From contig NGBS01001171.1 in the NCBI GenBank assembly GCA_002245135.1, forward strand, positions 1 to 64,000: 64,000 nucleotides of DNA, written 5' to 3'. The position numbers were made by a program, and so were the translations under genes. A model generated the notes under the pieces. The model was not told where the DNA came from and made no database searches. It was given only the letters and a program-made list of their open reading frames with translations. How positions within the stretch are numbered: position 1 is the stretch's first letter; each line of letters opens with the position of its first letter. Shown in pieces: positions 1 to 36,394 of the stretch. The stretch is from Proteromonas lacertae. Its lineage: Eukaryota.

Positions 1-655
1 GTTCATCTCTTGTGAATCATTACTATTTCCATCATCTTTTTTTCTTTTAGATGGTTGTTTCTTGTTTGGTCCGTTTATAGCATTTATCGCCCTTTGCATT
101 GCTTTTTTTACACTCTCATCTGATTCAAGTGATAAATACTTGTTAATTCTCTTGATTAGAATTGCAGCAAAACTTTCATCATAGCTTACCTTTCCTTTTT
201 CTGTTACCTATATTAGATAATAAACAATAAATACTAAATAGTGAATATTGTTCCAAAATCTTTCTTTTCTAAAAGATTCTTTGTGAGCTCCCCACGAAGC
301 AAATAATTCATATTCCTATACTTATAACAATATAGTGAATACATTCACCATTATTGGTATCACGCAGTCCTTAATGATACTTAAATCTTTAATATCCATT
401 CGAGCTTCTGGAAAGTCACATAGAAACCCTATTTGAGCGTAATTAGTGGTTGATAATTCAACATGATATTCGTCAGTTCCTTCAATTTTAGTTAACTCAC
501 GGCTAGTCAATATAATAAATAATAAAGAATACATAATATGACATCTAAAACGATCAGTCATATTTATTTACATGAATGTTTGATTAGGCTTGATATTAAT
601 CTTTTGTATTTATGTAAGTTACAATCAAGATTACATTGTTGTAATACTCCAGCAT
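1..655 (-). CDS. Hypothetical multi-exon protein, left copy (3' end outside window)
   Basis: Mirror of 36395-37111. Small exons joined by GT-AG introns give an open frame; start codon uncertain. Confidence 0.6.
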
Positions 656-788
656 GGCCTCATTATTGTAGCACGGGTATAACTAAATATTAGAAATTAA
701 TACTTATAAAAATCATAATTTGTTGTTAGTTTGATATAATCTTTACAAATAATGAAAAAATATAACTAATATAATAATAATATTATCA

Positions 789-3588
789 TTATTTACTGCA
801 TACTGGACAAAACCAATCACCTTTAGGAATTGACTTTAATCCAACACATTGTTTATGATAAACTCTTGGACATGTTTCACAACATAATAAATTACCTTTT
901 CTCTTACAAATTTCACATTTATCATTCCATACATCCTTCTTTTTGTTCTTCTTTTGTTGTTGCTTTTCTTTCTTCTTTAATTCTTGTTTCTTCTGTTCTG
1001 TTATCTGTTTTAATGGTTTTTGAATGATGTTAAAAATAAAGATTCAAAAAAGCTCCAAATTCACTTTCAGTTTTACATTCTTTTAATTCATTTAAAAAGT
1101 CTATTTCTACTTTTTCTCCTATTTCTTTTATTTTATAGGAATCATCACTTGCTTTCGCTGTTTTTACTTTGTTAAATGGATAATCAAATATTTCATCATA
1201 TTGAGGAATTAATTCACATAATCCTATTTCTATTAATTCTTTGAAATTATGATTATCATCATCTTCTTTTTCTTTTTCTTTTTCATCATTACCTTCTTCA
1301 TTATCTTCATCTTTCTCTTCATTTTCTTCTTCTTCTTTCATCAATTTCTCTAAATTTTCTTCGATTTTGGAATATTCTTTACTCACTTTAACTAATTCGT
1401 TCACTTCATTATCTATTCTAAATATCTCTTTTTTAACTTGTTTTATTGTAGAAATGTTATTTTCATTTGCCTGAAATATACCTTCATCCACTTTTCTAAA
1501 CTGTTTTCTTATGACATTTTGATAGAGTTTTATCTTTGGCATAACTATTTCTAAATGTTTATGTAATTTCTCTTCTTTTATTCCTTCTATAAAGAGATTA
1601 TTTTGTAGTTTTTCTACATCATCGTAATTATCATAATATGACCATTTACTCACTAATGTTAGAGGATCTATAAGTGAAATTACATCTTTTTCTATACTCA
1701 ATTATTATATATAACTATAAATATATACTTTTATTGTTTGATAATATCATATTCTCATCATATTCTTCTACAAATATCATATTTGGTTCAGTTGAGAAAT
1801 ACCAATATCTATTATTACAATAATCACTACCTAACGCTTTCGTTCTTATGTTATTCTCATTGGTAGATGCTTTATTCAAATACTATTTCATTTATATATA
1901 TAAATATATACATTTTCTTTCTTTTCTTTCAATTTATTCATAGACATATCTTTACTACTTATATTTTCTATATCTTCTAAAAGAGATTGTATTATGAAAA
2001 ATGGTAATATAAGTGGATGACAATATTTATCATTTCCTCTACCTCCTAATAAAGAACATTCTTCAGCTGAACTAATTATTTTCTAATACAAATAAATAGA
2101 AAATTACATACATTTACTACATCTATTTTATTAGCCGATTTTACTGAAGACTTTATTAATTCAAGTAATGATTCTTGTTGACCTTTTATTGATTGAACAA
2201 ATTGCATATACATATCTTCATCTCTTCTATAACCTTTCATCTTCTTTTCAACATTATCTTTATATTTTTCAATATATTTTAAATAGGATTTGTAACTGGT
2301 ATGAGTTTTAAAATATGTTTTATAGTTATCTGGAAGATTAGATGGTTTGAATGGGTCTTTTAAACTGTCTATTTTATAAGAATAATAATTGAATTATATA
2401 TATATATATGTAATTAAATACTTGGATATAAATAACTTGAAGATATTTCAAATATTTTATTATCTTCTAATATTGTACTACTTAATTCATTAATGTCATT
2501 ATTGATTGACTTTTTCTGCTGTTTTATTTCTTTTAATTTCTCTTTTTCACTATTTATATAACTCAAATGTTTAGTTATTTTTTCTTGTTGATTGTCAACT
2601 TCTGATTTTATATAATCTATTATGTTATCACAATCATATATTAGCGTAGAAACATTGTATAATACCATTATTCTATTCTCAAAATCTAGTTCTTTTATAC
2701 TATCATTATTTAATATCTATTATGAATAATTAAACAGATTTATACAATATTAACTACTTCTTGATCAAAATTAATAATATTCTCATACTTAGTCACAAAC
2801 AACTGCAATAAATAATAACTGGAAATAATATTTATATCACTCTTTTCATCTTCAAAGTATGTATATATTGTCTCGATATTTTCACTTTCAAATATTTTTA
2901 TTTTTTCTTTACTATTACTTGATTCTATACAATAGGAATGGTATAATAATGAAACGAACTCATTTAATATTATTTCCAATTTATATTCATCTTCTTTTAC
3001 TCTTAATGAAGCTATGAATTCATCAAGTGTAATTTCATTGTATTGTTCCACTAATAAAAATAAATTGAAAGTATTCCAAGTCTATTTAGGACATTATTTT
3101 AAGGGATATTTATACTTCCATTATATAATATAGTAAATTAGATGGAACACTCAAGTATTCACTCAGATCTTTTGGCTTTGGACGATTTTCAATAAGTTCT
3201 TTCGGAATTTTGGGAATACTAAAACGTCTTTCAATTTCTAATAACTCATCTAATTGCTTTTTATACTACAAATATGAAATAAGACAGATATACTTCCTTT
3301 AACTGTTCTTTTGTGCTTAGTACTTTGAAAGTTTCTTGTAATGGACTTGGTGTTACTGGACTTGTAACTTTTATCTTCCTTTTCTTCATCGGGATCTCAA
3401 TCTTCATATCATCGTCACTCAACTCTCTAATTATAATTATTGACATATAAATACTCTGCTTTTCTTTTTGATAATTCTTCTGTATTTTGGACTTCTGTAG
3501 GTGAAGTTTTCACTGATGGACTGTTTTTATTTTCTATGCTATCGTTTAATTCAATTGGCACGGGTATTTCACTAGCAGTTTCTGACAT
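789..3588 (-). CDS. WHIM/WSD + C-terminal PHD finger chromatin protein (BAZ/ACF1-like), left copy; 1-bp frameshift near 1035
   Basis: Start [14 protein letters not shown]-like [13 protein letters not shown]...[16 protein letters not shown] finger [41 protein letters not shown]5 run versus T4 in the right copy breaks the frame. Confidence 0.8.
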
Positions 3589-3630
3589 TCTAACACAAAA
3601 CTATCTCTATAAAAAACAAAAAATGAAATA

Positions 3631-3647
3631 TTCAAAAACGCGCCAAA
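3631..3647 (-). promoter_or_regulatory. E2F-like site (TTTGGCGCG) followed by CHR-like TTTGAA
   Basis: Minus strand reads TTTGGCGCGTTTTTGAA about 45-60 nt upstream of the PHD-gene ATG. A GC-rich motif in AT-rich DNA, retained in both arms. Confidence 0.4.
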
Positions 3648-3968
3648 TACAATTAAGTGAAAATTTTCAAACACCAAATATTAAAAAGCTTGAATTTTTG
3701 TTGTAGAAACAGCCAAATAACAACAGAAATATGCGCGAATGAAAATTCAATTAATTACAACATAAATAATAGGAGTAGTTAAGTACAAAAATACTAATGT
3801 TAAACTATTTATATGTTATAAGTAAATCTATCCACAACCATGAAAAATGGATATCAAATGGGTAGGAGGTTATATACACATTATAATTTCAAATTTAAAC
3901 ATTTAGGTTATCCAAAAACTGAAAAAATAGCTTGGCTTGAATTCTTTCGTTATTGTTGATTCTATATA

Positions 3969-6854
3969 ATGGGAAGTGTTCCAAGTAAAATTGATGGATA
4001 TTCTGTATATTGAGATTGGTATTATATTGTAGATATTAAAAGAAACATCATCAAATGGATTTAGTAGTTGTTTAGAAGTGAAAGAAGAAACATCAGATCA
4101 AGAGAAAGTTTTGAAGATTTACAATCGCAAATACATTCCTGAAGTTAATATTACCAAGTATTTAGATGAATTAAAGAAAACTGAAGAATTAATAATACCG
4201 CATATTGGTAGATATGATGAAGTTAAAAATGAAAATGATTTTCTAGCCATTAAAATGAAAAAATACCCTAAAACATTAGAAACTATTAATCCTTTACACT
4301 ATTTCAATAAACACGGTATAGGAGGTATATTAATTAATATTTGTGAGACACTTGAAGCATTCCACAGAAAAGGTTTGATATATGGTAATTTAAAACCATC
4401 CAATATATTAATAACTGAAAATGGAAAATATATGTTGATTGACTATTTTTCCAACTTATTAACCAAAAATTTTGAAATTGAAAAAGAGAACTTATCCTAC
4501 TGTAGTCCAGAAATGATAATAAACGAAGGAATTAATACCAAAACAGATATGTGGAGTTTAGGATGTATTATCTATTATTTAATGACTGGAAAGAAAGTGT
4601 TTGAAGGTGAAACAACCACCGAAATAAAAGAGAAGATAATAAACTGTGATTATAAACAATTAGGTTTCGAATATGTTAGAGGGTATGTTCAACTGATTGA
4701 GAGATTATTAAGAAAAGATCCAAACGAAAGAATATCTGTGAAAGAAGTTAAAGAAGAAGTTATTAGTATATATATATATATATAATTATAATTATTAAAT
4801 ATAGAAATGAATCCTATTCCTATTGATTTACACCCCAAACCATCAGAAACTAGTAAAATGCCATTATCCTATGATGAAAATAAAGATAAAGGTGATGAAC
4901 TTTATGAAAATAGTGAATATCAAGAAGCTATAAAATACTTCACGGAAGGATTAAAATATTGTGAAAGAGATAATCAAAAGTGTTATATGAATGCTTATTT
5001 AGGTTATTCTTACCTTAATCTAGTATATATTTATATATATTATATTTTCTATTTGTTTAATAGAAGAATTATGGTGAAAGTGTAAAGTATTTATGTGAAG
5101 CTTATAGATATGCAAGTGAAGAACCAAAAGTAGTGAAATTAAATATTTGTGAAAATATTGGAAAGTTATATTTTAGTACAGTATATATATATATATATAT
5201 ATTATTTTATTGTAATTATAATTAGAATCAATTTGTTGAAGCATTACCTGCTTTTAATGAAGCATTAACCTATACAACAGGAAGAGAAAAATTTACTAAA
5301 TGTGAATTATACAAGTATTTAGGTAAAACATATTATAACCTTGTATTTATAAATATATTATTTATTTATATGAAATAGGAAAGATATGAAGAATCAATTG
5401 AATCATTCAATACATCAATGAGATATTGTGAAGAAGGAGAAAAGGATGATGATGATAATGCTGAACTTAAATCTGATTTGAATTTATCAATTGGTAAATC
5501 TTACTTCAAAACTGTATTTAATATAAATATATATTCACAATATAATGATAGGGGAAAAACAAAGAGACATTAACTTCCTTAACAGAATCATTAAAATATT
5601 CGAAAGAATCTCATGATCATGTTAAATGTGAAATATATAGACATATTGGTTATGCTTATTTAAATATCGTATATATATAATAATAATAATAATTATTATT
5701 ATTAGAAATATTATCTTGAGAGTTTATCTGCATTTAGACAAGCTGAAAAGTATTGTGGTGATGAACCAAGTGAAGTAAAATCAAATATTGCAGAAAATAT
5801 AGGTAATTTATATTATCTAGCTGTATAAATATATGAATATTTATTATTAATAATTACTAGGAACATTATAAAGAAGCTATTCCACCATTTGAAGATACTT
5901 TAAAACTTGCTAAGAGAAGTGAAAATGATAAATTCAAGTATTATAAATTGTTAGGTAAATCATATTTCTTAATCGTATATTTAATGTTGTTGTTATTTTA
6001 TAAATAGAAAAGATATGCTAAAGCTGTATTAGCCTTTAAGAAAGCTATGCATTATTTCAATGATGAAAGTGAAGATGATAAAGTTGATATATATTTGTCA
6101 CTTGGAATATCATTTTACAGAAATGTATTTATTTAGTAGTTTATTACTTTTATATAAATATAGTCACAATATGAAGAATGTTTAAGTATCTTAACAAGAT
6201 CAATTAAGCATGCAAAAGGTTCAAAAGATCTTGTAAAATGTGAAATTTATAGACATATCGGTTATTCTCAATATATTCTTGTATATATATTATTTATTGT
6301 TATGAAATAATATAAATAGAAACATTATGATGAAAGTTTTGCTGCTTTTAAAGAAGCTAAGAAATATTGTGATGAGGAAAGTGATGAGATTAAGTGTGAT
6401 ATATATTCTCATATAGGAAAAATAATGTATGATACAAATCATTTCAACGAAGCAATTTCCCCATTTGATAAGTCAGTTATGTATATTAAAGATGTAAGTG
6501 ATTCAGTCAAATGTGAGATATTTAAATTGTTGGGTAAATCATGCTACAATGTCGTATATCATATTATATATATATTTAATCTAATATATAGGGAAGAATT
6601 AATGCTGCAATTAAGTCATTAGTTGAAGCTGTTAAATACTGTAAGAAAGAAAGTAATGAAATCAAATCAGATATTTATCAGTCTTTAGGAAAAGCATATC
6701 AGAAGAATGTATAAACATATTGTTGATAATCTATTATTAGGGTGATAATAAAGAAGCAAAAGAGACATTCAACGAAGCAATTAAGTTCAAAGATGAGATA
6801 AATAGAGGTGAAGTGGATGAATTGTTGCTAAGTGGAAGTTGGTTCTTTGAATGA
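3969..6854 (+). CDS. Putative N-myristoylated pseudokinase fused to ~12 TPR-like repeats, left copy
   Basis: Starts MGSVPS. Kinase fold has YGNLKPSN (no catalytic Asp), DYF for DFG, CSPE and DMWSLG. It is spliced to mostly 117-nt phase-0 exons, each encoding one TPR-like unit. Stop TGA at 6852-6854. Confidence 0.85.
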
Positions 6855-7841
6855 TCTATATAAATAGAAATAATTATATTAACTATATAAATATGGTATC
6901 ATCGCTGTTGTTTTTGAGTAAATGTAAAGAATTTTGTAAGTAAAGATAATTTAGGTTTATTTATATTGTTCACAAATTATATGATATATTATTATATCCT
7001 AGTTTATATTCTCATCCATCAAGTGTAATTAACCACTATAAACAAAGATTTAAAAAATATCATTAAAGATTCGGTTTTCGGTTTTCTGATATTTGAAAAT
7101 CTTTTAATTAAATGATATACAAGAATAAGATTTGGTCTAAAATTAATTGATGCGTTTATGTGTGATGGAAAGTACTGTATAGCATAAATGTTCATTAAAT
7201 TCAGTTAATTAGGAGTTGAGCAGTATATTTTATAGTATAATTGAAAGAAATAATATGTATATAGATTAATCATTATTATTTCTAGACAACCTTCTCAGAT
7301 GTGTTAATTTATTCATAAATGTTCTAGTAGTTTGAATTATGTTCTGCATATGAATACTACCGCATTAATTTAGTAATGCTAATTAAATATCGTATTCTGA
7401 TATAGCATTTATAGAATTAGACATTACTCTCTGAAACAAAGTGCTTTTCATTAGCAACAATTCATTATGAGTTTGCACATGTTTATCGGTTGTTTTCTAT
7501 TATGGAGGTAATATGTGATAAGAGAGCCAAAGAATTATTGTAAAAAAGAAAATTGAAAGTTTTTTCTTTTTTGCATTTCTTTGTTTTCTTCTTAAGTGAA
7601 CATTTAAAAGCAGTTAAATTTGCATTATTTGTAGTTGGTATATATCTATCTATTATTTTACGCAATATCTCTCTCACTTTCATACTCATTACCTCATTAT
7701 CTAATTTTATAGATAAAGAATGAGTTATTTTTCATATTGTTCAACCAATGCAGCAGATATTGGCAAAAATAAAGAAGAAAAAGTAGAATTTTCACTATTA
7801 CTTGATAATTTATACAAGATCAATATCAAAACTCCTAATGT

Positions 7842-10249
7842 ATGATATTTATGGTTATATGTATTTCTTTTGTAGTGAATTCCAATACTTTATTCTTCAA
7901 ATTTTCATACCTTAGTAGTAATAGTAGATGGGGATATAGAATGTTTGTTATTGGATTAGGAGATTCAGAAATATTATCTGAAAGAGCTTTTGTATCAAAT
8001 CCAAATTTAGAGTGGTCATTATGGTTATTGAATATTATATTACATCAATCAAATATAATAGATTCATTAAACAAAGAAATCAAACAACAACTATTCAATA
8101 CTTTAGTTAAACAATTTGTTAAGTCTATAAACAAAGAAAGAATAATAAATATATTAGTTACATTATTCAGAGATGAAAGATTTAAAGATTTAGTAACACA
8201 ATCAAAAGAAATAGATGATTTAGCATCACAATCATTTAATAACATTAACTATGGAAGAAAAAGAGACAATATAGATTTATTCTTGATAGAATTGTATTGT
8301 CTGTCAAAATATCATTCAAATCCAATAAATATTAATAAATTAGAAAGTGATGAAATATCAATAGAGAAAATATCATCAGTCTATTCATTGTTATATGAAA
8401 TGTCTATCAGTCAATATATTCCTTTATTTAATCATTCAAATTCAATAAATTATAATACAAAAACATATGAAGCAACCTCATATCCACGTAAAAACAGATA
8501 TATGAAATATGAATATGAATGTAATTGTTTTAATAACTTTAAAGTGATTATTCACAAAAATACAAATGTTGGAAAAGAAAAAATAAATATAATATATAAC
8601 AATGATTCCAAGCAATTTATTGGTAAATTTGATGATGATTTAGTTGTTGAGATTAATAATACAAACAGAATTAGTATTGAAACATGGTTGTTTAAATCAA
8701 AATCATTCAAATACATGTTATCTATAAGATATTTAAAAGTAATAAAAGATAATGGTGAGAAGAAATAGAGACATATAATCATAATTATCAAGAAGTAACA
8801 AATATAATGAATGTTATAAACAGAATAAATGAAACAAATTCTATTCCTGAAAGAGATGTTTATAATCAATACATAAATGAAAATGGAATTGATAATATTC
8901 CAACATGGGATGTATTTGAAGAATTACATAAATCAGTTGATATAATAAGAAAGAATATGATTGAGGTATTAAAATATGTTGATTTGTCTCAATTAAATGT
9001 GAAAAGCAGTTTTGCATATTTGATTAAAGAGAATAAGATATTTATATCAAAGAAACAAAAGAAGTTATATTCCAATAAAGTAAAGAATGAATTAAGAATT
9101 AGATATGGAAATAGTGTAAAATCTGTAGAAATTGACAGATTTAAAGCAAATAATGAAAAGGTAAAAGGAAAAATAAACTCATTACAATCAAATTGTGTAT
9201 TTAAACAATTATACAATCAATTATATGGATATGGAGAAAGAATATGGTTTGCAACATCTGATGGATATCAAGTATTTACAGTTCATTTTACAAATGAAGG
9301 TGCTTCAGATGCAGGTGGACCATATAGAGAATGTTTAGAAGAAATGATTGAAGATTTATTCAGTGAATATTTTGATTTGTTTATTCCAACAAGTAACAAT
9401 AAACATAAATATGGTATTGATACTGATTGTTTTATTCCCAATCCAAATTGTAAAGAGATAGAACATTTGAAAATGTATGAATTTGTTGGTAGAATAATGG
9501 GATATTCAATATTATCAAATGCCTCTTTACCATTTATGTTTCCCAAATGTTTTTGGAATGTTTTTAATGGAAATGAATTAAGATATGAAGATATCTATGA
9601 TTTAGATCAATATTTATATAATAATCTAGAAGAGATAAGAAATGCCAAAAATGAAGAAGAATTACCAAAACAACCAGCATTTGTGATAAGTGATGAAAAT
9701 GGTGAGATAATGAATCTAAATGAAGGAATTGAAGAAGAATTGAATATGGAGAATAAAGAAAAACATTGTGAATTAATAACCAATTATTTTATTCATCGAT
9801 GTGATATTCAAATAAAATCAATATTAAAAGGATTGTATAGTGTAATTCCACAATCATATTTCTTCTTATTTAATGGAGATGATATAGAAGAATTTGTGTG
9901 TGGAAAAGCAGAGATAGATGTTGAATATTTGAAACAACATACTAGATATGAAGGATATGATAGTAATAGTCAAACAGTACTTGATTTTTGGAAAGTAATG
10001 GAGAGTTTTAACAATGAAGAAAGAAGAAAATTCATAAGATTTGTTTGGGGAAGAAGTAGATTGCCTTTGAAAGGAGAAAATTGGAATAATTCATTCATAA
10101 TATATAGATGTTGTTCTACAGATAGATTACCATCATCACATACCTGTAGTTTTCAAATTGATTTACCAGATTATTCAAATTATGATTTGTTGGAAAGAAA
10201 TTTGAGAATAGTAATAAATTATGGATTGGGATCTATGTTAAATGCCTAA
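7842..10249 (+). CDS. HECT E3 ubiquitin ligase, left copy, split by apparent 1-bp deletion near 8758
   Basis: EGASDAGGPYRE, FVWGRSRLP and RLPSSHTCSFQIDLPDY (catalytic Cys). Adding one base at ggtgagaagaaatag joins the two ORFs into 802 aa. True 5' end unresolved. Confidence 0.85.
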
Positions 10250-10487
10250 ATAAACATTTGATTAATAAAAATACTGTTTATTAATTACTTCTCTTTGATT
10301 TATGAATAATTTATGTAAAAATCTATGTACACACCAGAAACTCTCTATAACTCCATTTCTATAATAATATATTATCATCATGTATTCATCATAATTACAC
10401 TTAATTTAAAATTTAAAAAATATCAAAATTATGATCGTTTCATTCAAGCCAAAAACTTGATCCTTTTTTATTCTTTTTCATTTTAAG

Positions 10488-11967
10488 ATGCATATAGTTG
10501 TATATTTCACTATTTTATATGCTCAGATTATTGACACAAGAGTAAATGATGGAATGAAAGAAGAAGGTGAGGAATTGGTGAAGAATCTGAAGAATTGTCT
10601 TGAAAACTACAGTATATTGTTGATTAATATATTCCAGTGTTAATAAAAAGTACAATGGAATTGTTATGTGAAGAATATGTGAGTTGCTTGTGTATTAGTG
10701 AGAAGTAGAGATAATCTATGAGTTATATAAAATGTATAGAGTGAATGTGATGTTTAAACCCTGCCAATTCAAAGATAGTTTAAAGAATTTCGAGAATAGT
10801 TGTTTAAGACTAAATGTGAGTGAATTAAGCAAGACCAACTCTCCATTAGAATCAGTGGCATTGACTGTTAGTTGTAAATTGATCCAAATGAACTTAGGTA
10901 AAAAGAATGAGGATATAAGAATCTCTTATTTTACCTCCAACATATTTGAGAAAGATGAAAATATTGAGAAATTGTACAATTATTTATTTAAGAAATGTAT
11001 AAAATTGGAAATATTATACATATCATCAGCATGTGAAATAGAAATAGATAAAGTATATATATATATATATATAATATACATAATATTGATAGTTAATTGA
11101 GTTTAAAAGATCAATCGAAGAATATGCGAATATTGAGATAATTCCATTATTAAATGATTATTACAATATATTAAAAAAGACAAGAGAATGGATTTCATTA
11201 GAATTACCATCCATTGAATCAGTTTTAATACTTTCAAATCCAACAACAACAACAACAACAGTATTTATATATATATTAATAATGACAATAGAAAAGAGAA
11301 ATAAATGTTAAAATCATTTTACCTTATATTTATGGTCCTCCATTCACTTCTTATTCTATTTCTTCGTTATTTCATAATGGAATGACCAAATTTACATTAT
11401 TATGCAAAATTGAGTTAGATTCAATTGATTTAAGTATTATCTCTTATACCTTATTAATAAAGATTCCTTTAATGAATAATACTTTTAATTATGATAATTA
11501 CTTAAATAATATGAAGAATTTCAATACCTTAATATACTATTTACATAGCAATAGTAATATAGGATTATTATTCTACACCTATAATCCAATAAATAGATTA
11601 AAAGAATATTATATTATAATAAGTAGTGATAATAATGAAAATACAAATGAATGTTTATTATTATTAAGAATCCCAACAAATGAACAAATATTATATAGAC
11701 AAAATCGAAATGAAGATACAATAAGTGAAGAATATAATAATGAATTAATAATGTATATAATATATATTAATGTATGTGTATAGGGATTTAGATGGAATGA
11801 AAGTAGATAGTTTTAATCCTTTATTATACAGTAGTGATTTGAAAGAACCAAAGAATGTTGTTATTAATAATAATAATAATACTTCAGTAAATGATAAGAA
11901 AAAGAAAAGAGTGAAAAGAAAACTATTATTAACATCACCTCCTTCTAAACCTACAATCTCAATTTAA
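10488..11967 (+). CDS. Possible M1AP (meiosis 1 arrest protein)-like protein, left copy
   Basis: Spliced model. C-terminal motifs YLNNMKNFNTLIYYL, YYIII..LLLLRIPTNEQIL and LDGMKVDSFNPLL resemble the M1AP C-terminus as I recall it; not searched. Confidence 0.5.
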
Positions 11968-12112
11968 TTATATTTTTATTATTTTTGATATTTTTGTTGT
12001 AATTTGTTTGTTGAGTTGAAAATAAAATAAATAACAATGAAAAACAGTTAACAAATCACTTATTTATTAATTTTACACAAAAACAGTGAGATAATGAGAG
12101 AGATTATTCAAC

Positions 12113-13495
12113 CTATTCATCAGTTTCATTACTGTGTGTTATATAATAATAATTTATTCTTCTTTTATCCAAAATTTCTTTTCTTTTTCTATATAAATAA
12201 CAATAATAATAATAATAACATATACTCATAATAACTAATATCATAAGGTGTTTTTTCTTTCAATTTCTTTTCTTCATTCGATATTCTATAAGCCATAAAC
12301 ATACAAATAGCTATTATTATTGCTGAAATATATAATATTATTCTTTCAAATTCATTCAATCCTTTCATTGAAAAGTGAATTTGATTTATTCCTGGTAAAT
12401 TTACTTTATCTTCTTGGTATAACAAATATAACCTATTAAATATATATATTCATCATTATTACAATACATGATATGAACAAATATCATATTCAAAACAAAT
12501 AACATAAACTCTTTGTATTTGAAATCTTTATATCTCTTTGAATCATTGATTCTTTTTTCTATTTCTAATCCTATTTCATTTATATCTTCTCCTACTCTTT
12601 CTTCATATTTATTTATTTTATTATTAACTAAATTTTCTATTTTTGAACAAATCTCATTTAAATCTGATGAATTATTAATCTTTTCAGTTTCATATGGCTT
12701 TGGTATTGATAAAGAATAAACTTTATCAATATTTACACTTAAACTACTTAAACTACTTCCTAATCTCACTGAACAATTAACCAATTCATTTCTATTCAAT
12801 AAATCTACTTTTGTTAAACAATATATCATTTTCTCTTTATATTTCTCATTCAATTTTATTATTATTTCTCTTGTTTTATTACAACTTAATACTACATGTT
12901 CATCTAGAAATACCAACACTAAATCACATTTATCTACTAATTCCAATATTATTTCTTCTTCTTTGTAATTGCAATATAAATCATCAGATAAACCAGGAGT
13001 GTCTATCAAATCTACCAACTTTGAGTCATGTGAATTAAACACAGTAAATTTTGTTTCAAAATAATCCAAAAAACTTTCACTTTCTTTCAATTTTTCTATC
13101 TCAGGCCAATAACTTAAAGCATTTAATCCAATTTCTGTATCATGATTTATAGTAACAAATCTAATTAAGGTGAATTTGGTTGTATCTATTTGTTCTCCTG
13201 TTTGTTGAACTATCCCTCCAACATACCCTAAATATCATCATAATACATTTATCATACAATTCACAAACTGACTCTTACCTGAAGACTGATTTCCAATTAT
13301 TAACACTTTCGTTCTTTTATCTTTTGCTTTTAAATCAACCGATAAATCTTTGCTTAATGATCTTAAACCAATTTTACAGTTTCTGTCTCTATACAGTTCA
13401 TTCAACTCCTTTATTTTCATCTCTTTTGTGTCTAATATTTCCTAATAAATCATCAAAAAAAGATATACTGGTGAATCACATTCATATGTTGACAT
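12113..13495 (-). CDS. Dynamin/EHD-like P-loop GTPase with C-terminal hydrophobic helices, left copy
   Basis: G1 GNQSSGKS, G3 LIDTPG, G4 TKVD; two hydrophobic segments near the C-terminus. Confidence 0.75.
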
Positions 13496-13665
13496 TTTTA
13501 TGATTTATAGACTTTTTAAATTTGGTGGTTATTGAAAATATGAAAATGGTTTATGAAAATTCATTCAAACATTTGGCTTGACTTTTCTTTTTTCATTTTC
13601 ATCAAGATAGAATGTGTTTACAATTACCAAATACACAAAAACAACAATAAAATTGTAATTGTATT

Positions 13666-16600
13666 TTATTTATTATGTTTTATCATGTGAACCATATTAT
13701 CTACTTGTCTTGTGGCAGTATTTAACGATTTTACTATCTCTTTCTTATATTCACTTTTTGCATCTTCTTCATTCGCATCTAATAATAACATATCACATAA
13801 ATAATTTATATCATCATCTTTTACTAATTCATCTAAACCAGCACTTACCATTAATTGAAATAAACTAATAAACAATGAACTATTCTCTCGAATTATATTA
13901 TAAGCTTCACAACATTTCGTTTCAAATTCATTATATCGTTTATCTTTCGTATTTCCCATTACAGCTAACATTTGAGGAGTAAATACAAATTTACTTCTCT
14001 CTCTTTTTACTCCCAATTTCTTTTTGAAGTTGCCTAAAATATGACCAAAATCAATATGAAATAAATTACCTTTTCGAGTTAACATTATATTACTTGGATG
14101 TCGATCACCTATTCCGATTATATAAGTAGCTACACAATAACCAGCACAACTCTTTATAAATGTTTCAACTGCTGTGTTATAAGATCCTTCAGCTTTATTA
14201 TTATCTCTTAACCAATCATCTAATGGAGATTTTACAAAAGCACCTTTCAAACCAACTTTATTCATTATATTATTTGTAGTTTCAGAATCAGCTACAAATT
14301 CGATTATTCCACTATGATCACCTGTTGCATAACAACCATATAATTCTAAACCCAAATTCAACTTTTCTTTACTTTTACTCCAATACTATTCATTCATTAT
14401 AAAACATATAAATAGATATTATATTATTATATATACTCGATCCATTATTCGAATGATTTGGAGTGTTAATTGATCTTGTCGAACATCATCTCCTATCTTT
14501 ATCATTGTTACAATATTTCGACAATCTTTATCTAGATTTTGAAACACTATCTTTAAAGGCTTTTGTTTACTATCCATTATTTTACATTTATCCACTATTA
14601 TATTACTTATCTTCAATCGATGAGATAAACAAAGTTCTGTATTCTTTGGAAAGTTATTTGATTCAATCAATTTTGTTAGTTCATTTTTGGCAAATTTAGT
14701 TTTATCTATTCCTACACCTTGATTTATTGCTTTTCGACTTATCTCTTCAAGTTGTTTTTGTAACATATATTGATCATATAAATGTTCGGCATGTAATGGA
14801 TAACTCTCTAAATAGATGTGAATTAGGATTTTATAGATATTATTATAAGATGTATGTAATTCACCTATTAAAGTCCAAAATACTACATGACCAACTCGAA
14901 TTGGACTGTGAAATGATCGATATAATAAAAATCGCAATAATACATTATCGATATTAGATTCATGTTTTAATGCTTGGATTAACGGCATTATAAACATACA
15001 TAAATCTTCATCAGATAATTCACTTAGTAATTGAACTGCACTTGCTCGAACTATTGGATCAGGATATAATGAAGATAATAACTCGATTCCTATTGAAGGA
15101 TTTAGATTTCGAGTATTTATTAACAATCTTCGACTTTTTTCAGCACTCTTTTTATCACACCAATTGGTCGCTCGTAGTATCTTACAGATTGAACGAGTGG
15201 GAAATCCATATTCATTTTTACCATTCATCTCATTGAAGATAAAATCACTATATTTATTCACTAATTCGATTGATTCTCTTTCATTTAATTCTATTCCATT
15301 TCCACTATTATTGTTATTATTATTTGTATTGGAATTTATATTAGAATTTGATATATTTCCACTATTATTACTGTTATTATCATTTAAATGACCATGAAAT
15401 TCAGCTATTGGATCTATTTACATTAAAAACTATAATAATTTATATACTCAATTTACAGATATTTAATAAACATTCTATCTCATTCTTATTGGGTTGTAAG
15501 ATTATCTCATTCTCTATTCGAATGTCATTTATTACTAATGGCATTGGAATATAGATGTTTTCATTGAATTGGGGAAATTCGATTGTTATTATTGGAGGAT
15601 TATCATTTGGAGGATCATTATACACTCCATTTATTAGATTCAAATCTTTCTCATTATTATTTAACCATAATTTATATTCTTTTCGACCTTGTTGAATTTC
15701 ATTGTTATATTCATAATAAGATACATTTGTACCAGCGATTAAACTGTCTTTTTCAACATTCATCACTTTTATTAAGATTCGAGTTCCTATTGGAATACAT
15801 TTTAATTCCAATGAACTGTTTAACCAGTCACTATTTATATGACAAGATTTTGAATATTCTACTATATATTTCTTATTTATTTTTGTTGATAATATTATTT
15901 CATTCTTTCGATAATCATTTAATACAAATCCACCATACATCAACATTATTATTACATAGATATGACTGTTGTTATTATTTACATTACTCGGTAAATTGTC
16001 AATTCCATTCACTTTGATTCGGAATGGATAACCATCAGGAATTTTATCTAAACTTATTCGATTTTTATTATTTCGATTTTCATTCTCCATTATATTTGAT
16101 AAGTTCACTATTGGATCAGCCACACCAGCTTCAGTTAAACCCATCATCGAAATTGTATTATCATAACTACATCGATGACTTATTGAATTATATATCGATT
16201 CTTCAAATGGTAATAGATTTAATTCGATTGTACTGTTACTTACAATATAATGCATTATATTTGTATAATCGGTTAAATGTTTATCACCATATACCAAATA
16301 TTCATTAAAACCACGAATCTTTAGGATAAAATGCATATTCTTAGGGATTTCATATCCATCTACCTTTTTCAATTGAGATTTTATTCTCTCTATACACATA
16401 TCAGGGGTTGAAGAGGTTGGAATATTTAATGTCAAAATTTGATTGCTATTATTGTATTTTATTAAAATTGTAGGTAAATAGATTGTTATTGAAACTACTT
16501 TGGAGATCTTTTCACTGTTCTGATTACTTATATCTATATAACTAGGATATTCTAAATGATTATATAAAATATCTTCATTCAACAAAATCTTATATTTACT

Positions 16601-17245
16601 TATCCAGTTTCGAAGATTCTTTAATAACATTTTCATTTCTGTACTGTATTCATTTGGACTTCCAACTATTGAACGAATTACTCGATTTAAATCATTTCGA
16701 TTATCACTTAAAGGTAACATTTTATTTACTTTACTCACTAAATTTAATGGATTTTCATATAAAATCGATTTATTTACATTATTATAATAATATATTTCAC
16801 CATTATCTACATTGATCTATTATTTATTATATATTCATTATCATTATATATATATATATACTTTAATATGCCAATTATTTTTATATTCTCTTTCCCAAAC
16901 ACTTACATCACTGTTTATTTCATTATTTTCTACATTTTCTTCACTCTCTTCTTCGTCATTCTTTTCTTCATTCTCATAAGATATTAAATCCCAATCATTT
17001 TCATCTAACAACCATACTTTCAACTTTTTTTCTTCATTCAAGTAATAATAGGTTCCACTTTTATTATAACATTTCTTCCAATTATCTAATCATAAATTAT
17101 TTATTATCATTATTTTATACTCAAAGGAATCACATTATCTATTCTACTCACACCATCCATATCATAATAACCATCATCCACATAATCTCCTATCTCACTT
17201 TCACTCTATTCATATTTATATATCATAAATCTATTTTTATACCAT
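13666..17245 (-). CDS. Class I-like phosphoinositide 3-kinase with two N-terminal WW domains, left (intact) copy
   Basis: RBD-like, C2, helical and kinase regions (KIGDDVRQDQL, GIGDRHPSNIM, HIDFGHILGNFKKKLGVKRER). Spliced N-terminus gives two WW-like motifs. Confidence 0.9.
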
Positions 17246-17377
17246 CAAAAAATACAAAAATCTAAATCAAACAATCGGTACAATCGACATGGAGTGATTG
17301 TTAATGTTTTTTATAGTCAATCATACAAGCATTTATAATAAATATTAATATGTTATAATGAAAATTGCTATTGTTAT

Positions 17378-18581
17378 TTACCAAAACTTTCGAGGAATAT
17401 CCTTCGGCAGTAAGGCATTATAACTTCCACACTTTTTATCCTCTTTCCAGCATGGACTTACTCCTTTAAATTCTTTAACAAACCAAGAAAAATTGTGACA
17501 TTTTAATCTTTCTTTTAGTTTTAAGTTTTCTGATATATCACCAAAATCAACACTTCCTCTCTTTAAACCACGTGCTTTATAAAAATTGTTGATATACTCT
17601 TCACCTAACCAAGTTTCTGCTAGTCTTACATAATTTCTTCGAATTTGATAACCATCAATCTTATAAGGAATCTTTCTAAATCCGTGTGCAATAAAGCATG
17701 ATTTAGCTACCACAATTCTTCCTCCACATAACCATGTTTTTAATGAAATTTCAATATTTTCAGCTCCCCACTGTTTCATTCTTTTATCCATTCCATTCAC
17801 TTCAGTCCACCATTTCTTTGTTATGAAAAATTCACCCATTGTACCGGCACTTATCATTGTACCAGGTTTTGCACAAGACCATCTATGAATTAAAGACCAA
17901 TAAAACCCTGCAGAACTACCAATTCCATGTAAAGCAGAAAAAAATTCATATGTAGTTACATTTAGACTAAATACTACAGGATTTACTACAGTTCTATAAT
18001 TCTCTTTCATTAATCTATAAGGTTCCTCTAGCCATCCTTCTGCTACTTTAATATGGCAATCCATCATTGCTATATATTCATATGCTGCTTCATTACCGCC
18101 TAAATTACGAGCTGCAATCAAACCAGTTCTTACATCATTTCTAACTATCCTCACAATTGGATTTGGATGACTAACTGGAATAGGTGAACCATCATCGATA
18201 ACAAGAATCTCACCAAGCAATTCTTTCGATGTATTAAACAAGATAGAATCAACATTAAAATATTTATTAAGAAAATCATATTGAATTAACTATATATAAA
18301 AATGATATGTTTTATAAAGTAAAGTTTCATTGAAATCAACAAGAACTACAGAAAATTTACCTGGCTTAAATGGTGGACCTATATGAAATTGATATTTTGG
18401 TTTATTATACGATGCTTAAGTTCTTCCTCACTATATCCTTCCCTAAAAATGAATGTTTTAGCTTCTTCAATATCAGGAACTAGTCTCAAAGCTAAATATA
18501 TGTTTAATGGGAAAGAAAGCACAACAAAAAGAATCTATTAATTTAAAACGCAGAAAATACTATAAATCTAACACATTTCAT
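17378..18581 (-). CDS. Polypeptide N-acetylgalactosaminyltransferase (GT27) lacking ricin lectin domain; in IR spacer
   Basis: N-terminal hydrophobic anchor; EILVIDDGS, GLIAARNLG, DCH metal motif, WGAENIEISLKTWLCGG, LKCHNFSWF, then stop. Confidence 0.9.
18255..18308 (-). other. Probable U12-type (minor) intron with AT-AA termini
   Basis: 54 nt: 5' ATATCATTTT, branch-like TTTCTTAAT 11 nt before the end, 3' AA. Removal restores NETLLYKT-VDSILFNT; the unspliced frame has a TAG. Confidence 0.75.
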
Positions 18582-18678
18582 TTTCAAAAATAATAGAAAA
18601 ATAGATTCGTTTCAATTTCATTCTTTTTGTTTTTATTAATTTAATAAAACCCTAACATAATTAAATAACTTTTACAAC

Positions 18679-19539
18679 CTATATAAAAATCGAAAATTGT
18701 CTCTTTTTAGGAGGAACTTTTGTTACACGAGTAAAATAATTTGAAAATTTTACAAAACATTCTTGGCTTAAAGTATTATACTTATAAGGCAAATCACAAT
18801 CTGGAGAATTATCAGCTAATAAACTAGGATATAAATGAAGAAGCAACATTTCAAAATTATGTACAGCTAATTGTCTATCTTCATTTACAATAATATAATC
18901 ACTATGTTTATAGCCATATATCATGTCATTCTCTACATTCTTCATCCTAATCTTAATCATTGTCTCTGATTCTGTATGTCTTGCTTTTAATCTCTTTTCC
19001 AGAGAATCAATAGTAGGAGGAACTATGTATAAATAATTACAATGTAGTTTATGACATGCTAGTATATGTTGCATTCCATGAATGCTTACTTCTATTATTG
19101 GAACACAACCACAACTTCTAATTTCATCTAAAGTTCTAAAACTAGTACCATAGATCGCATTATATAGTCTATCATATTCTAAAAACATGCCTCTTCTAAT
19201 CATTTCTTCCATTTCTGGTGTTGATGTGAAGTAATAATCAAACCCATTTCTTTCACCTCTTCTTGGCAGTCTGGTAGTATGGCTAATTGAGGTTTTAATA
19301 AGATGAGGAAACATATGTTTAATTTCATTTATTAATGTACCTTTACCCACACCAGAAGGACCAGAAACAACCAATGGCCTTATATCAAGTCCACGCTATG
19401 GATTAATAGCTTATAAAATCTATACAGTCGTTATGTGTGATGTGTTCCTTGGTATAAGCGAATTAGAAGCATTAATCCATTTTGATAAGGAGTAAGTTCT
19501 AATGATTTATACCTAATAAATATACCCCCTCTCATTCAT
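18679..19539 (-). CDS. Guanylate kinase; in IR spacer
   Basis: RPLVVSGPSGVGKGT, SISHTTRLPRRGERNGFDYYF, YGTS. Two upstream introns inferred; start uncertain. Confidence 0.88.
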
Positions 19540-19652
19540 AGAATTTGCCAAAGTGGACAACACCTCTCTATTACGCTTTACCAAAAATTTTAAAGTCTGT
19601 TTCAAAGAAATTGTTTGTACTTTGTGGGGAAGTTTCGGCAGACGTTTGACTA

Positions 19653-19700
19653 AAACAATCGGAAAATACAATCACTCCATGTCGATTGTACCGATTGTTT
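19653..19700. repeat. Quasi-palindrome at the arm/spacer junction
   Basis: AAACAATCGG-aaaa-TACAATC-actccatgtc-GATTGTA-CCGATTGTTT: 10-bp and 7-bp stems, 4-nt bulge, 10-nt loop. Confidence 0.85.
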
Positions 19701-19723
19701 GATTTAGATTTTTGTATTTTTTG

Positions 19724-22700
19724 ATGGTATAAAAATAGATTTATGATATATAAATATGAATAGAGTGAAAGTGAGATAGGAGATTATGTGGATGATGGTT
19801 ATTATGATATGGATGGTGTGAGTAGAATAGATAATGTGATTCCTTTGAGTATAAAATAATGATAATAAATAATTTATGATTAGATAATTGGAAGAAATGT
19901 TATAATAAAAGTGGAACCTATTATTACTTGAATGAAGAAAAAAAGTTGAAAGTATGGTTGTTAGATGAAAATGATTGGGATTTAATATCTTATGAGAATG
20001 AAGAAAAGAATGACGAAGAAGAGAGTGAAGAAAATGTAGAAAATAATGAAATAAACAGTGATGTAAGTGTTTGGGAAAGAGAATATAAAAATAATTGGCA
20101 TATTAAAGTATATATATATATATAATGATAATGAATATATAATAAATAATAGATCAATGTAGATAATGGTGAAATATATTATTATAATAATGTAAATAAA
20201 TCGATTTTATATGAAAATCCATTAAATTTAGTGAGTAAAGTAAATAAAATGTTACCTTTAAGTGATAATCGAAATGATTTAAATCGAGTAATTCGTTCAA
20301 TAGTTGGAAGTCCAAATGAATACAGTACAGAAATGAAAATGTTATTAAAGAATCTTCGAAACTGGATAAGTAAATATAAGATTTTGTTGAATGAAGATAT
20401 TTTATATAATCATTTAGAATATCCTAGTTATATAGATATAAGTAATCAGAACAGTGAAAAGATCTCCAAAGTAGTTTCAATAACAATCTATTTACCTACA
20501 ATTTTAATAAAATACAATAATAGCAATCAAATTTTGACATTAAATATTCCAACCTCTTCAACCCCTGATATGTGTATAGAGAGAATAAAATCTCAATTGA
20601 AAAAGGTAGATGGATATGAAATCCCTAAGAATATGCATTTTATCCTAAAGATTCGTGGTTTTAATGAATATTTGGTATATGGTGATAAACATTTAACCGA
20701 TTATACAAATATAATGCATTATATTGTAAGTAACAGTACAATCGAATTAAATCTATTACCATTTGAAGAATCGATATATAATTCAATAAGTCATCGATGT
20801 AGTTATGATAATACAATTTCGATGATGGGTTTAACTGAAGCTGGTGTGGCTGATCCAATAGTGAACTTATCAAATATAATGGAGAATGAAAATCGAAATA
20901 ATAAAAATCGAATAAGTTTAGATAAAATTCCTGATGGTTATCCATTCCGAATCAAAGTGAATGGAATTGACAATTTACCGAGTAATGTAAATAATAACAA
21001 CAGTCATATCTATGTAATAATAATGTTGATGTATGGTGGATTTGTATTAAATGATTATCGAAAGAATGAAATAATATTATCAACAAAAATAAATAAGAAA
21101 TATATAGTAGAATATTCAAAATCTTGTCATATAAATAGTGACTGGTTAAACAGTTCATTGGAATTAAAATGTATTCCAATAGGAACTCGAATCTTAATAA
21201 AAGTGATGAATGTTGAAAAAGACAGTTTAATCGCTGGTACAAATGTATCTTATTATGAATATAACAATGAAATTCAACAAGGTCGAAAAGAATATAAATT
21301 ATGGTTAAATAATAATGAGAAAGATTTGAATCTAATAAATGGAGTGTATAATGATCCTCCAAATGATAATCCTCCAATAATAACAATCGAATTTCCCCAA
21401 TTCAATGAAAACATCTATATTCCAATGCCATTAGTAATAAATGACATTCGAATAGAGAATGAGATAATCTTACAACCCAATAAGAATGAGATAGAATGTT
21501 TATTAAATATCTGTAAATTGAGTATATAAATTATTATAGTTTTTAATGTAAATAGATCCAATAGCTGAATTTCATGGTCATTTAAATGATAATAACAGTA
21601 ATAATAGTGGAAATATATCAAATTCTAATATAAATTCCAATACAAATAATAATAACAATAATAGTGGAAATGGAATAGAATTAAATGAAAGAGAATCAAT
21701 CGAATTAGTGAATAAATATAGTGATTTTATCTTCAATGAGATGAATGGTAAAAATGAATATGGATTTCCCACTCGTTCAATCTGTAAGATACTACGAGCG
21801 ACCAATTGGTGTGATAAAAAGAGTGCTGAAAAAAGTCGAAGATTGTTAATAAATACTCGAAATCTAAATCCTTCAATAGGAATCGAGTTATTATCTTCAT
21901 TATATCCTGATCCAATAGTTCGAGCAAGTGCAGTTCAATTACTAAGTGAATTATCTGATGAAGATTTATGTATGTTTATAATGCCGTTAATCCAAGCATT
22001 AAAACATGAATCTAATATCGATAATGTATTATTGCGATTTTTATTATATCGATCATTTCACAGTCCAATTCGAGTTGGTCATGTAGTATTTTGGACTTTA
22101 ATAGGTGAATTACATACATCTTATAATAATATCTATAAAATCCTAATTCACATCTATTTAGAGAGTTATCCATTACATGCCGAACATTTATATGATCAAT
22201 ATATGTTACAAAAACAACTTGAAGAGATAAGTCGAAAAGCAATAAATCAAGGTGTAGGAATAGATAAAACTAAATTTGCCAAAAATGAACTAACAAAATT
22301 GATTGAATCAAATAACTTTCCAAAGAATACAGAACTTTGTTTATCTCATCGATTGAAGATAAGTAATATAATAGTGGATAAATGTAAAATAATGGATAGT
22401 AAACAAAAGCCTTTAAAGATAGTGTTTCAAAATCTAGATAAAGATTGTCGAAATATTGTAACAATGATAAAGATAGGAGATGATGTTCGACAAGATCAAT
22501 TAACACTCCAAATCATTCGAATAATGGATCGAGTATATATAATAATATAATATCTATTTATATGTTTTATAATGAATGAATAGTATTGGAGTAAAAGTAA
22601 AGAAAAGTTGAATTTGGGTTTAGAATTATATGGTTGTTATGCAACAGGTGATCATAGTGGAATAATCGAATTTGTAGCTGATTCTGAAACCACGAATAAT

Positions 22701-23304
22701 ATAATGAATAAAGTTGGTTTGAAAGGTGCTTTTGTAAAATCTCCATTAGATGATTGGTTAAGAGATAATAATAAAGCTGAAGGATCTTATAACACAGCAG
22801 TTGAAACATTTATAAAGAGTTGTGCTGGTTATTGTGTAGCTACTTATATAATCGGAATAGGTGATCGACATCCAAGTAATATAATGTTAACTCGAAAAGG
22901 TAATTTATTTCATATTGATTTTGGTCATATTTTAGGCAACTTCAAAAAGAAATTGGGAGTAAAAAGAGAGAGAAGTAAATTTGTATTTACTCCTCAAATG
23001 TTAGCTGTAATGGGAAATACGAAAGATAAACGATATAATGAATTTGAAACGAAATGTTGTGAAGCTTATAATATAATTCGAGAGAATAGTTCATTGTTTA
23101 TTAGTTTATTTCAATTAATGGTAAGTGCTGGTTTAGATGAATTAGTAAAAGATGATGATATAAATTATTTATGTGATATGTTATTATTAGATGCGAATGA
23201 AGAAGATGCGAAAAAGTGAATATAAGAAAGAGATAGTAAAATCGTTAAATACTGCCACAAGACAAGTAGATAATATGGTTCACATGATAAAACATAATAA
23301 ATAA
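19724..23304 (+). CDS. WW-WW class I-like PI3K, right copy; +1 frameshift near 23210 truncates the C-terminus (stop 23217-23219)
   Basis: Mirror of the left copy; gatgcgaaaaagtga versus gatgcaaaaagtgaa. Confidence 0.88.
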
Positions 23305-23474
23305 AATACAATTACAATTTTATTGTTGTTTTTGTGTATTTGGTAATTGTAAACACATTCTATCTTGATGAAAATGAAAAAAGAAAAGTCAAGCCAAATG
23401 TTTGAATGAATTTTCATAAACCATTTTCATATTTTCAATAACCACCAAATTTAAAAAGTCTATAAATCATAAAA

Positions 23475-24866
23475 ATGTCAACATATGAATGTGATTCACC
23501 AGTATATCTTTTTTTGATGATTTATTAGGAAATATTAGACACAAAAGAGATGAAAATAAAGGAGTTGAATGAACTGTATAGAGACAGAAACTGTAAAATT
23601 GGTTTAAGATCATTAAGCAAAGATTTATCGGTTGATTTAAAAGCAAAAGATAAAAGAACGAAAGTGTTAATAATTGGAAATCAGTCTTCAGGTAAGAGTC
23701 AGTTTGTGAATTGTATGATAAATGTATTATGATGATATTTAGGGTATGTTGGAGGGATAGTTCAACAAACAGGAGAACAAATAGATACAACCAAATTCAC
23801 CTTAATTAGATTTGTTACTATAAATCATGATACAGAAATTGGATTAAATGCTTTAAGTTATTGGCCTGAGATAGAAAAATTGAAAGAAAGTGAAAGTTTT
23901 TTGGATTATTTTGAAACAAAATTTACTGTGTTTAATTCACATGACTCGAAGTTGGTAGATTTGATAGACACTCCTGGTTTATCTGATGATTTATATTGCA
24001 ATTACAAAGAAGAAGAAATAATATTGGAATTAGTAGATAAATGTGATTTAGTGTTGGTATTTCTAGATGAACATGTAGTATTAAGTTGTAATAAAACAAG
24101 AGAAATAATAATAAAATTGAATGAGAAATATAAAGAGAAAATGATATATTGTTTAACAAAAGTAGATTTATTGAATAGAAATGAATTGGTTAATTGTTCA
24201 GTGAGATTAGGAAGTAGTTTAAGTAGTTTAGGTGTAAATATTGATAAAGTTTATTCTTTATCAATACCAAAGCCATATGAAACTGAAAAGATTAATAATT
24301 CATCAGATTTAAATGAGATTTGTTCAAAAATAGAAAATTTAGTTAATAATAAAATAAATAAATATGAAGAAAGAGTAGGAGAAGATATAAATGAAATAGG
24401 ATTAGAAATAGAAAAAAGAATCAATGATTCAAAGAGATATAAAGATTTCAAATACAAAGAGTTTATGTTATTTGTTTTGAATATGATATTTGTTCATATC
24501 ATGTATTGTAATAATGATGAATATATATATTTAATAGGTTATATTTGTTATACCAAGAAGATAAAGTAAATTTACCAGGAATAAATCAAATTCACTTTTC
24601 AATGAAAGGATTGAATGAATTTGAAAGAATAATATTATATATTTCAGCAATAATAATAGCTATTTGTATGTTTATGGCTTATAGAATATCGAATGAAGAA
24701 AAGAAATTGAAAGAAAAAACACCTTATGATATTAGTTATTATGAGTATATGTTGTTATTGTTATTATTGTTATTATTGTTATTTATATAGAAAAAGAAAA
24801 GAAATTTTGGATAAAAGAAGAATAAATTATTATTATATAACACACAATAATGAAACTGATGAATAG
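23475..24866 (+). CDS. Dynamin/EHD-like GTPase, right copy
   Basis: Mirror of 12113-13495; one S/G change in the main exon. Confidence 0.75.
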
Positions 24867-25011
24867 GTTGAATAATCTCTCTCATTATCTCACTGTTTTT
24901 GTGTAAAATTAATAAATAAGTGATTTGTTAATTGCTTTTCATTGTTATTTATTTTATTTTCAACTCAACAAACAAATTACAACAAAAATATCAAAAATAA
25001 TAGAAATATAA

Positions 25012-26492: not shown

Positions 26493-26730
26493 CTTAAAAT
26501 GAAAAAGAATAAAAAAGGATCAAGTTTTTGGCTTGAATGAAACGATCATAATTTTGATATTTTTTAAATATGAAATTAAGTGTATTTATGATGAATACAT
26601 GATGATAATATATTATTACAGAAATGGAGTTATAGAGAGTTTCTGGTGTGTACATAGATTTTTACATAAATTATTCATAAATCAAAGAGAAGTAATTAAT
26701 AAACAGTATTTTTATTAATCAAATGTTTAT

Positions 26731-33067: not shown

Positions 33068-33448
33068 TATATAGAATCAACAATAACGAAAGAATTCAAG
33101 CCAAGCTATTTTTTCAGTTTTTGGATAACCTAAATGTTTAAATTTGAAATTATAATGTGTATATAACCTCCTACCCATTTGATATCCATTTTTCATGGTT
33201 GTGGATAGATTTACTTATAACATATAAATAGTTTAACATTAGTATTTTTGTACTTAACTACTCCTATTATTTATGTTGTGATTAATTGAATTTTCATTTG
33301 CGCATATTTCTGTTGTTATTTGGCTGTTTCTACAACAAAAATTCAAGTTTTTTAATATTTGGTGTTTGAAAATTTTCACTCAATTGTATTTGGCGCGTTT
33401 TTGAATATTTCATTTTTTGTTTTTTTATAGAGATAGTTTTGTGTTAGA

Positions 33449-36261: not shown

Positions 36262-36394
36262 TGATAATATTATTATTATATTAGTTATATTTTTTCATTA
36301 TTTGTAAAGATTATATCAAACTAACAACAATTTATGATTTTTATAAGTATTAATTTCTAATATTTAGTTATACCCGTGCTACAATAATGAGGCC

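Follow-up and report, generated by a model that had tools for sequence, protein, structure and literature searches.

A deeply diverged patch in two near-identical inverted copies of a HECT ubiquitin ligase gene

Introduction

How can two copies of a gene that are nearly identical along most of their length differ almost beyond recognition over one short coding stretch? This question is raised by a HECT E3 ubiquitin ligase gene in a 64,000-nucleotide stretch of DNA from Proteromonas lacertae (hereafter the window), which carries the gene on both arms of an inverted duplication. The first-pass annotation regarded the diverged stretch as a hypervariable cassette and as the best candidate for an undescribed diversification system, in which segments are swapped into a ligase from other family members.

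In this study, we compared the two copies with each other and with outside relatives, modeled the fold of the region concerned, and weighed the explanations for its divergence. Overall, the patch is real in sequence and is likely an ordinary conversion patch between two old gene lineages, not a new system for generating variants.

Results

An inverted duplication carrying the HECT gene

The window has a GC content of 25.6%, and AT-rich sequence has also been reported for a reptile-gut type of Blastocystis (GC 21-23%; PMC12129017). Its genes are eukaryotic and short GT-AG introns are abundant (17 candidates of 23-53 bp in 4760-6800). Self-BLAST identified a left arm at 1-17301 and an inverted right arm at 19668-37051, which match in two segments (1-8575 with 37051-28460 at 98.8% identity, and 8855-17301 with 28125-19668 at 99.1%), and the match breaks exactly at the diverged patch. 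The arms are separated by a unique spacer of 2366 bp (17302-19667) encoding a family-2 glycosyltransferase and a guanylate kinase. The genes on the arms include ones for a PHD-finger protein, a kinase with a repeat-rich region behind it, the HECT ligase, a GTPase and a PI3-kinase. The left arm extends past the window start and is thus at least 17 kb long; it enters the window in the middle of a gene (position 1; 37052 onward), so the duplication may greatly exceed this length.

Several other features of the arms were observed. Their innermost 3 kb, which contain the PI3-kinase gene (14279-17301 and 19668-22690), are 100% identical. A strong DNA hairpin spans the junction of the right arm and the spacer (19653-19701; -14.1 kcal/mol, z -4.5, 0 of 200 shuffles) and may be a template-switch scar of the event that created the inverted duplication. 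The kinase ORF at 4033-4785 shows 4 nonsynonymous and 0 synonymous changes between the arms. The kinase domain in 4033-6850 (+ strand) and its partner have a non-canonical catalytic loop, and the sequence 3' of this domain is rich in introns, contains an internal repeat (period of about 620 bp, 65% identity) and is TPR-like by eye. A second, similar kinase is found at 46571-47758. Finally, small indels at 1032, 1273 and 13759 and at the partner positions disrupt otherwise intact genes in single arms, namely the PHD-finger gene (disrupted in each arm, but not at the same site) and the PI3-kinase gene (in the right arm); these are likely residual long-read errors.

Two copies of a HECT ligase gene

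The left copy of the HECT gene (7866-10249, + strand) carries the short type of the patch and a 1-bp frame break; its start is placed where homology to P0058 begins, and its 5' limit is provisional. The right copy (26731-29169, - strand) carries the long type and is a single open frame of 821 codons. HECT domains (PF00632) were found at 9341-10225 (+ strand) in the left copy and at 26755-27639 (- strand) in the right copy, with scores of 230.5 and 229.5 bits against a cut-off of 23.9, and the catalytic cysteine motif HTC is present in the C-lobe of both when these are aligned to HUWE1. Judged by domain and motif, both copies are predicted HECT E3 ubiquitin ligases. A Pfam match to Flu_NS2 fell below the cut-off and was disregarded. 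The best named HECT relative is a stramenopile (Triparma) protein, and P0004 is 56% identical to the window protein over residues 355-821 and 44% identical overall.

The frame of the left copy changes at about 8757-8759, in an A/G-rich run. This break may be a sequencing error, because 8 of the 15 indels outside the patch are of a single base and one of the 15 destroys the conserved PI3-kinase C-terminus in the right arm.

The 5' end was compared with P0058, a longer member of the P0004 cluster (1225 aa). Homology of the window gene begins at residue 375 of this protein, within the final strands of a sandwich domain that lies further upstream, and no remnant of the missing domain was found 5' of the gene (967 of 3000 shuffles score equally). 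Because of this start point and the lack of an upstream remnant, the window gene would be a 5'-shortened form, or its start may differ from that read here. Five 843-aa members of the P0004 cluster begin at the point where homology to the window gene begins, with P0058 extending further upstream, and several cluster members are short and located on contigs of 3-4 kb. These patterns could reflect a short form that is conserved, copies that are broken, or an effect of gene calling.

The patch and its edges

The left patch, related to P0067 and P0068, occupies 8524-8854 (+ strand, 331 bp), and the right patch, related to P0004, occupies 28126-28511 (- strand, 386 bp). Their DNA, with a GC content of 21-27%, is 53.6% identical over 330 aligned columns, and 81 of the 111 aligned residues differ. 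The arm background outside 8480-9010 has only 89 substitutions in 16,770 bp (0.53%), and these are biased toward transitions (54 of 89).

The 5' edge is sharp, with 8478-8523 identical between the copies. Further identical runs are located at 8556-8575, 8855-8886, 8937-8947 and 8949-8995. The first of these is a 20-bp island (8556-8575, + strand; 28460-28479 in the right patch) that encodes KNTNVG; an identical run of at least 20 columns arose in 9 of 20,000 column shuffles of the patch alignment, and the island is likely a micro-conversion. The 3' edge is ragged (8887-9007, + strand), and in 8855-9010 there are 17 differing codons, 15 of them nonsynonymous. Clusters of arm differences occur elsewhere as well, several of them within the HECT gene. 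A second micro-patch inside the HECT domain (9920-9980, + strand; 27000-27060 in the right copy) has 11 substitutions in 61 bp, and random placement of the arm differences gave at most 6 per 61 bp in 5000 trials.

Both patches derive from coding sequence, since neither the 129 right codons nor the 78 left codons that precede the frame break remained stop-free after shuffling (0 of 5000 each). They are also homologous to each other throughout (z 8.9 with the island, z 2.4 for the part after it). The first-pass description of these copies was accurate: it had reported a nearly unalignable segment sharing a KNTNVG island, a sharp upstream edge with patchy mismatches to about 9010, and a right version that is open with a left version one base out of frame. 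Its view that the divergence cannot have accumulated since the arms last matched also agrees with the gulf between patch and background and with the separate outside relatives of the two patches.

A predicted jelly-roll that overlaps the patch

The fold was modeled for residues 150-400 of the right (long-type) copy alone from 6 sequences, giving a mean pLDDT of 50.5 and values of 53-67 in the strands; a single-sequence fold of P0001 (pLDDT 35.5) was unusable. The model contains a predicted jelly-roll beta-sandwich at 28285-28587 (- strand; the left equivalent is about 8448-8735) that starts some 25 codons before the patch. Its structural matches include CBM32 and fucosidase domains (Z 7.6-8.5), the DOC domains of HECTD3 (7.0) and HERC2 (6.8) and CUB (6.8), with GOLD also in the range of Z 6.8-8.5 shared with CBM32, DOC and CUB; only 2 of the 48,161 chains compared reached Z 8. 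The upstream region of the right copy thus likely has a jelly-roll fold of the CBM32/DOC/CUB-like class, of which the model does not fix the family. The beta-sandwich proposed by the first-pass annotation is retained in this prediction, and its assignment as CUB-like is not, as CUB is just one of several equally good matches (Z 6.8, the best being 8.5).

Foldseek returned 0 matches at E<=0.001, and no CUB domain was matched by Pfam in the window HECT protein. An ES.HPY-type domain profile matched the equivalent of the sandwich in P0004 (E 0.003-0.005, in a small sequence set). An alignment that included remote sandwich domains contained misalignments, and we set it aside. The Atlas entry pointed to HECTD4 (0.86), which we take as a lead only.

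In the right copy, the sandwich comprises residues 204-304 approximately and the patch residues 229-357. As modeled, the patch does not coincide with a domain, as it begins about 25 residues inside the predicted sandwich and continues for about 55 residues into helices. DOC domains have a role in substrate binding, and by its resemblance to them the predicted sandwich may function in substrate recognition.

Different outside relatives of the short and long types

Relatives were sought in several ways. A HMMER search of representative proteins gave 2 matches, the fragments P0067 and P0068, both of the short type; it overlooked P0004 and was therefore incomplete. A profile search yielded 1 of 5626 sequences, P0069, which is a fragment of the P0004 type. 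In a word search with residues 30-430, 0 of 6499 candidates were confirmed even though P0004 exists, so searches of this kind miss relatives. Two metagenome scans produced 34 and 291 pattern matches, none of which was confirmed as a relative.

After the island, the left patch resembles P0067 (z 19.9) and not P0004 (z 0.3), and the right patch resembles P0004 (z 11.4) more than P0067 (z 2.5). Informative patch residues group the left patch with P0068 by 23 to 4 (p 0.0003) and with P0067 by 24 to 6 (p 0.0014). In four-taxon trees of the patch, the swapped grouping was favored (bootstrap proportion 0.85-0.96), although the grouping of left with right was not rejected at 0.05 (p-AU 0.058 with P0067, 0.11-0.18 with P0068). 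Sequence comparison thus indicates that the short and long types are homologous and old, each being nearer a different outside relative.

The shared 5' flank is 48-51% identical to P0068 and P0067; the corresponding values are 40-47% for the left patch and 22-28% for the right patch. Since the left patch agrees with the flank in its history, unlike the right patch, the latter (the long type) is probably the imported version. The direction of conversion is nevertheless uncertain, because in the ragged 3' part it is the right copy, not the left, that is nearer P0067 (6 to 2, p 0.29). The right patch and P0004 share just 20-24% identity, and their likeness may be a retained ancestral state.

Two types of patch and no donor in the window

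Word, HMMER, profile and other relative searches revealed two types of patch and no third. In the P0004 group, the patch region is covered by 8 sequences, P0069 and 7 of the 13 cluster members, and each of them has 0-3 differences from P0004 over 94-155 residues; these sequences are from other organisms, and clustering at 90% would hide strongly different variants. P0067 and P0068 are identical at all but 3 of 77 residues. No donor for either patch was found within the 64-kb window, and no direct or inverted repeats bracket either patch (seed 8, length 11). Two nearby HECT variants occur in all four combinations among the 13 P0004-cluster members, where contig chimeras are possible; together with the clustered differences, this pattern hints at ordinary exchange among copies.

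The description of the segment as hypervariable is not supported by these data, which reveal two types and little variation within them. A cassette-swapping repertoire is likewise not supported by a patch that has no donor in the window and no repeats at its edges and that crosses domain borders. Instead of an undescribed diversification system, the patch appears to be a fresh case of a known process.

A block of raised divergence

The divergence between the arms was determined by zone, running toward the gene and away from it: 0.12, 0.61, 1.67 and 1.58%, then the patch, then 1.29, 0.88, 0.20 and 0% (rho -0.65 with distance). A step model with optimized edges describes the data better (AIC 141.2) than a decay does (AIC 152.7). 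It defines a block of about 9 kb (3251-12250) in which, with the HECT gene excluded, the arms differ by 0.74%, compared with 0.10% outside. Divergence shows no trend with distance within the block (rho 0.13, p 0.52), which covers genes unrelated to the HECT gene. A smooth divergence peak around the HECT gene, also considered, is weakened by both results. The sequence in one arm may be that of a second haplotype or of a further copy of a duplicated block, with recent homogenization of the ends. Because a step with no internal gradient fits better, an origin from alleles is kept alive and a selected peak is weakened.

Discussion

Origin of the patch

The first-pass annotation named segmental gene conversion or old alleles as the likely cause, and both stand as candidates, the two types being homologous and old and having different relatives. 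The explanation we favor, with a confidence somewhat short of even, is that unprogrammed gene conversion of an ordinary kind copied one version of the patch from a paralogue that had diverged, and that the edges of this version were later eroded. Conserved coding sequence flanking a stretch of 110-130 residues would have primed homologous recombination with the paralogue, and the conversion tract would have replaced this stretch in one arm, probably the right arm with the long type. Short later conversions would then have eroded the tract edges, leaving the 20-bp island and the ragged 3' side, and the core, about 46% diverged, would now be too different to pair and would persist. The resulting ligase would be chimeric, its predicted jelly-roll surface would differ, and its binding may have changed. 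The clustering of arm differences within the HECT gene, above all the 11 in 61 bp, speaks for conversion. Against it, the 9-kb block of raised divergence over unrelated genes is explained equally well by a second haplotype, and the window holds no donor.

A second haplotype is central to the strongest rival, which we consider unlikely but a serious contender: the short and long types would be ancient balanced alleles of one locus, the 9-kb block would be a second haplotype captured by one arm, and the duplication would have fixed the heterozygote. The extension of the block across unrelated genes and the finding of two types only are consistent with this view, and Blastocystis isolates are reported to be diploid (PMC12129017). 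However, a protein identity of about 27% is extreme for alleles, particularly with at least 169 identical bases adjoining the patch. Moreover, no long-type sequence as close as P0067 and P0068 was recovered (both matches in the incomplete search that missed P0004 were short-type), and the 8 sequences of the P0004 group are of a single type, a count biased by the 90% clustering.

A rather improbable alternative is that the assembler or polisher placed sequence from a paralogous HECT gene or the other haplotype in one arm of a long inverted repeat that is difficult to resolve, in which case both sequences would be real and their arrangement would not. Residual indel errors in the assembly and the complete identity of the innermost arm sequence are in keeping with such a mosaic. 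An artifact is less easily reconciled with edges in codon register and nested identical runs of 11-47 bp, or with the transition bias of the arm substitutions, and the junction hairpin suggests, without proving it, that the rearrangement is real.

It is very unlikely that the patch is a selected island in an old palindrome, in which arm-to-arm conversion homogenizes the copies and selection shields the jelly-roll region (a Teshima-Innan peak). Divergence that climbs toward the gene and then drops would agree with this model, and the opsin genes offer a precedent for such a peak (PMC3924837), but the step is preferred to the decay, the block lacks an internal gradient, and the palindrome would need to be older than a split that corresponds to about 50% protein identity.

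Least probable of all is a dedicated repertoire in which many silent or paralogous donors are repeatedly copied into a constant ligase scaffold so that the choice of substrate varies: the sharp 5' edge, the multiple micro-patches, the predicted ligand-binding fold and the four variant combinations would fit it, yet the near-invariance of each of the two types, the lack of a donor in the 64-kb window or of edge repeats and the disregard of domain limits count against it.

Relation to known systems

Programmed segmental conversion in Borrelia vlsE, Neisseria pilE/pilS and the trypanosome VSG genes produces a variable segment with constant flanks and mosaic edges. The patch is likewise a variable segment between constant flanks with mosaic edges, but it is accompanied by no donor array in the 64-kb window, no edge signal and none of the multi-variant diversity of those systems.

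The closest precedent is Plasmodium falciparum DBLMSP/DBLMSP2, in which, as here, two deeply diverged lineages are confined to about one domain, and conversion between diverged paralogues has been proposed as their origin (PMC10919680). Those proteins are surface antigens with population data; the gene described here encodes a predicted intracellular ubiquitin ligase known from one assembly, with no donor in the window. Duplicates under gene conversion can have a divergence peak, as reported for exon 5 of the human red/green opsins (PMC3924837). The patch is similarly a highly divergent island in otherwise homogenized copies, although its divergence is far deeper and decay is not supported over a step. 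Duplicated blocks with 99% identity, for which homogenization by conversion was proposed, are reported in Blastocystis ST7 (PMC3129679). The present arms resemble them as a multi-gene duplicate at about 99% identity; the ST7 blocks lie mostly on separate scaffolds, unlike these copies, which are adjacent and inverted about a 2.4-kb spacer.

Among ligases, the window protein shares the HECT domain and its HTC motif with large HECT ligases of the HECTD4-, HERC2- and HECTD3-like kind, and its predicted sandwich is similar to the DOC domains of HECTD3 and HERC2 (Z 7.0 and 6.8). It is much shorter than these jelly-roll ligases and lacks the N-terminal 374 residues of P0058, and the likeness does not amount to established orthology. 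A narrow literature search combining HECT E3 ligases with gene conversion, substrate recognition and balancing selection found no report, and neither HECT nor gene conversion is mentioned in the available part of PMC5608401.

Implications

Gene conversion is a well-known mechanism, and one assembly cannot show an active system. A more far-reaching possibility, which we regard as quite unlikely, is a two-state jelly-roll polymorphism older than several species splits within this protist lineage, in which selection keeps the two states apart, conversion homogenizes the rest of the gene and the inverted duplication locks both into a single chromosome. If this were true, an E3 ligase would resemble loci for self/non-self or pathogen recognition in its behavior, and its modules for substrate binding would be interchangeable.

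If the arrangement in the window is real, the two copies are a clear case of a domain swap that arose naturally in a HECT ligase, with proteins that are nearly identical except in a predicted binding module, and their choice of substrates would be directly testable. Dimorphism made by conversion would then extend from the surface antigens of parasites to an intracellular ubiquitin ligase.
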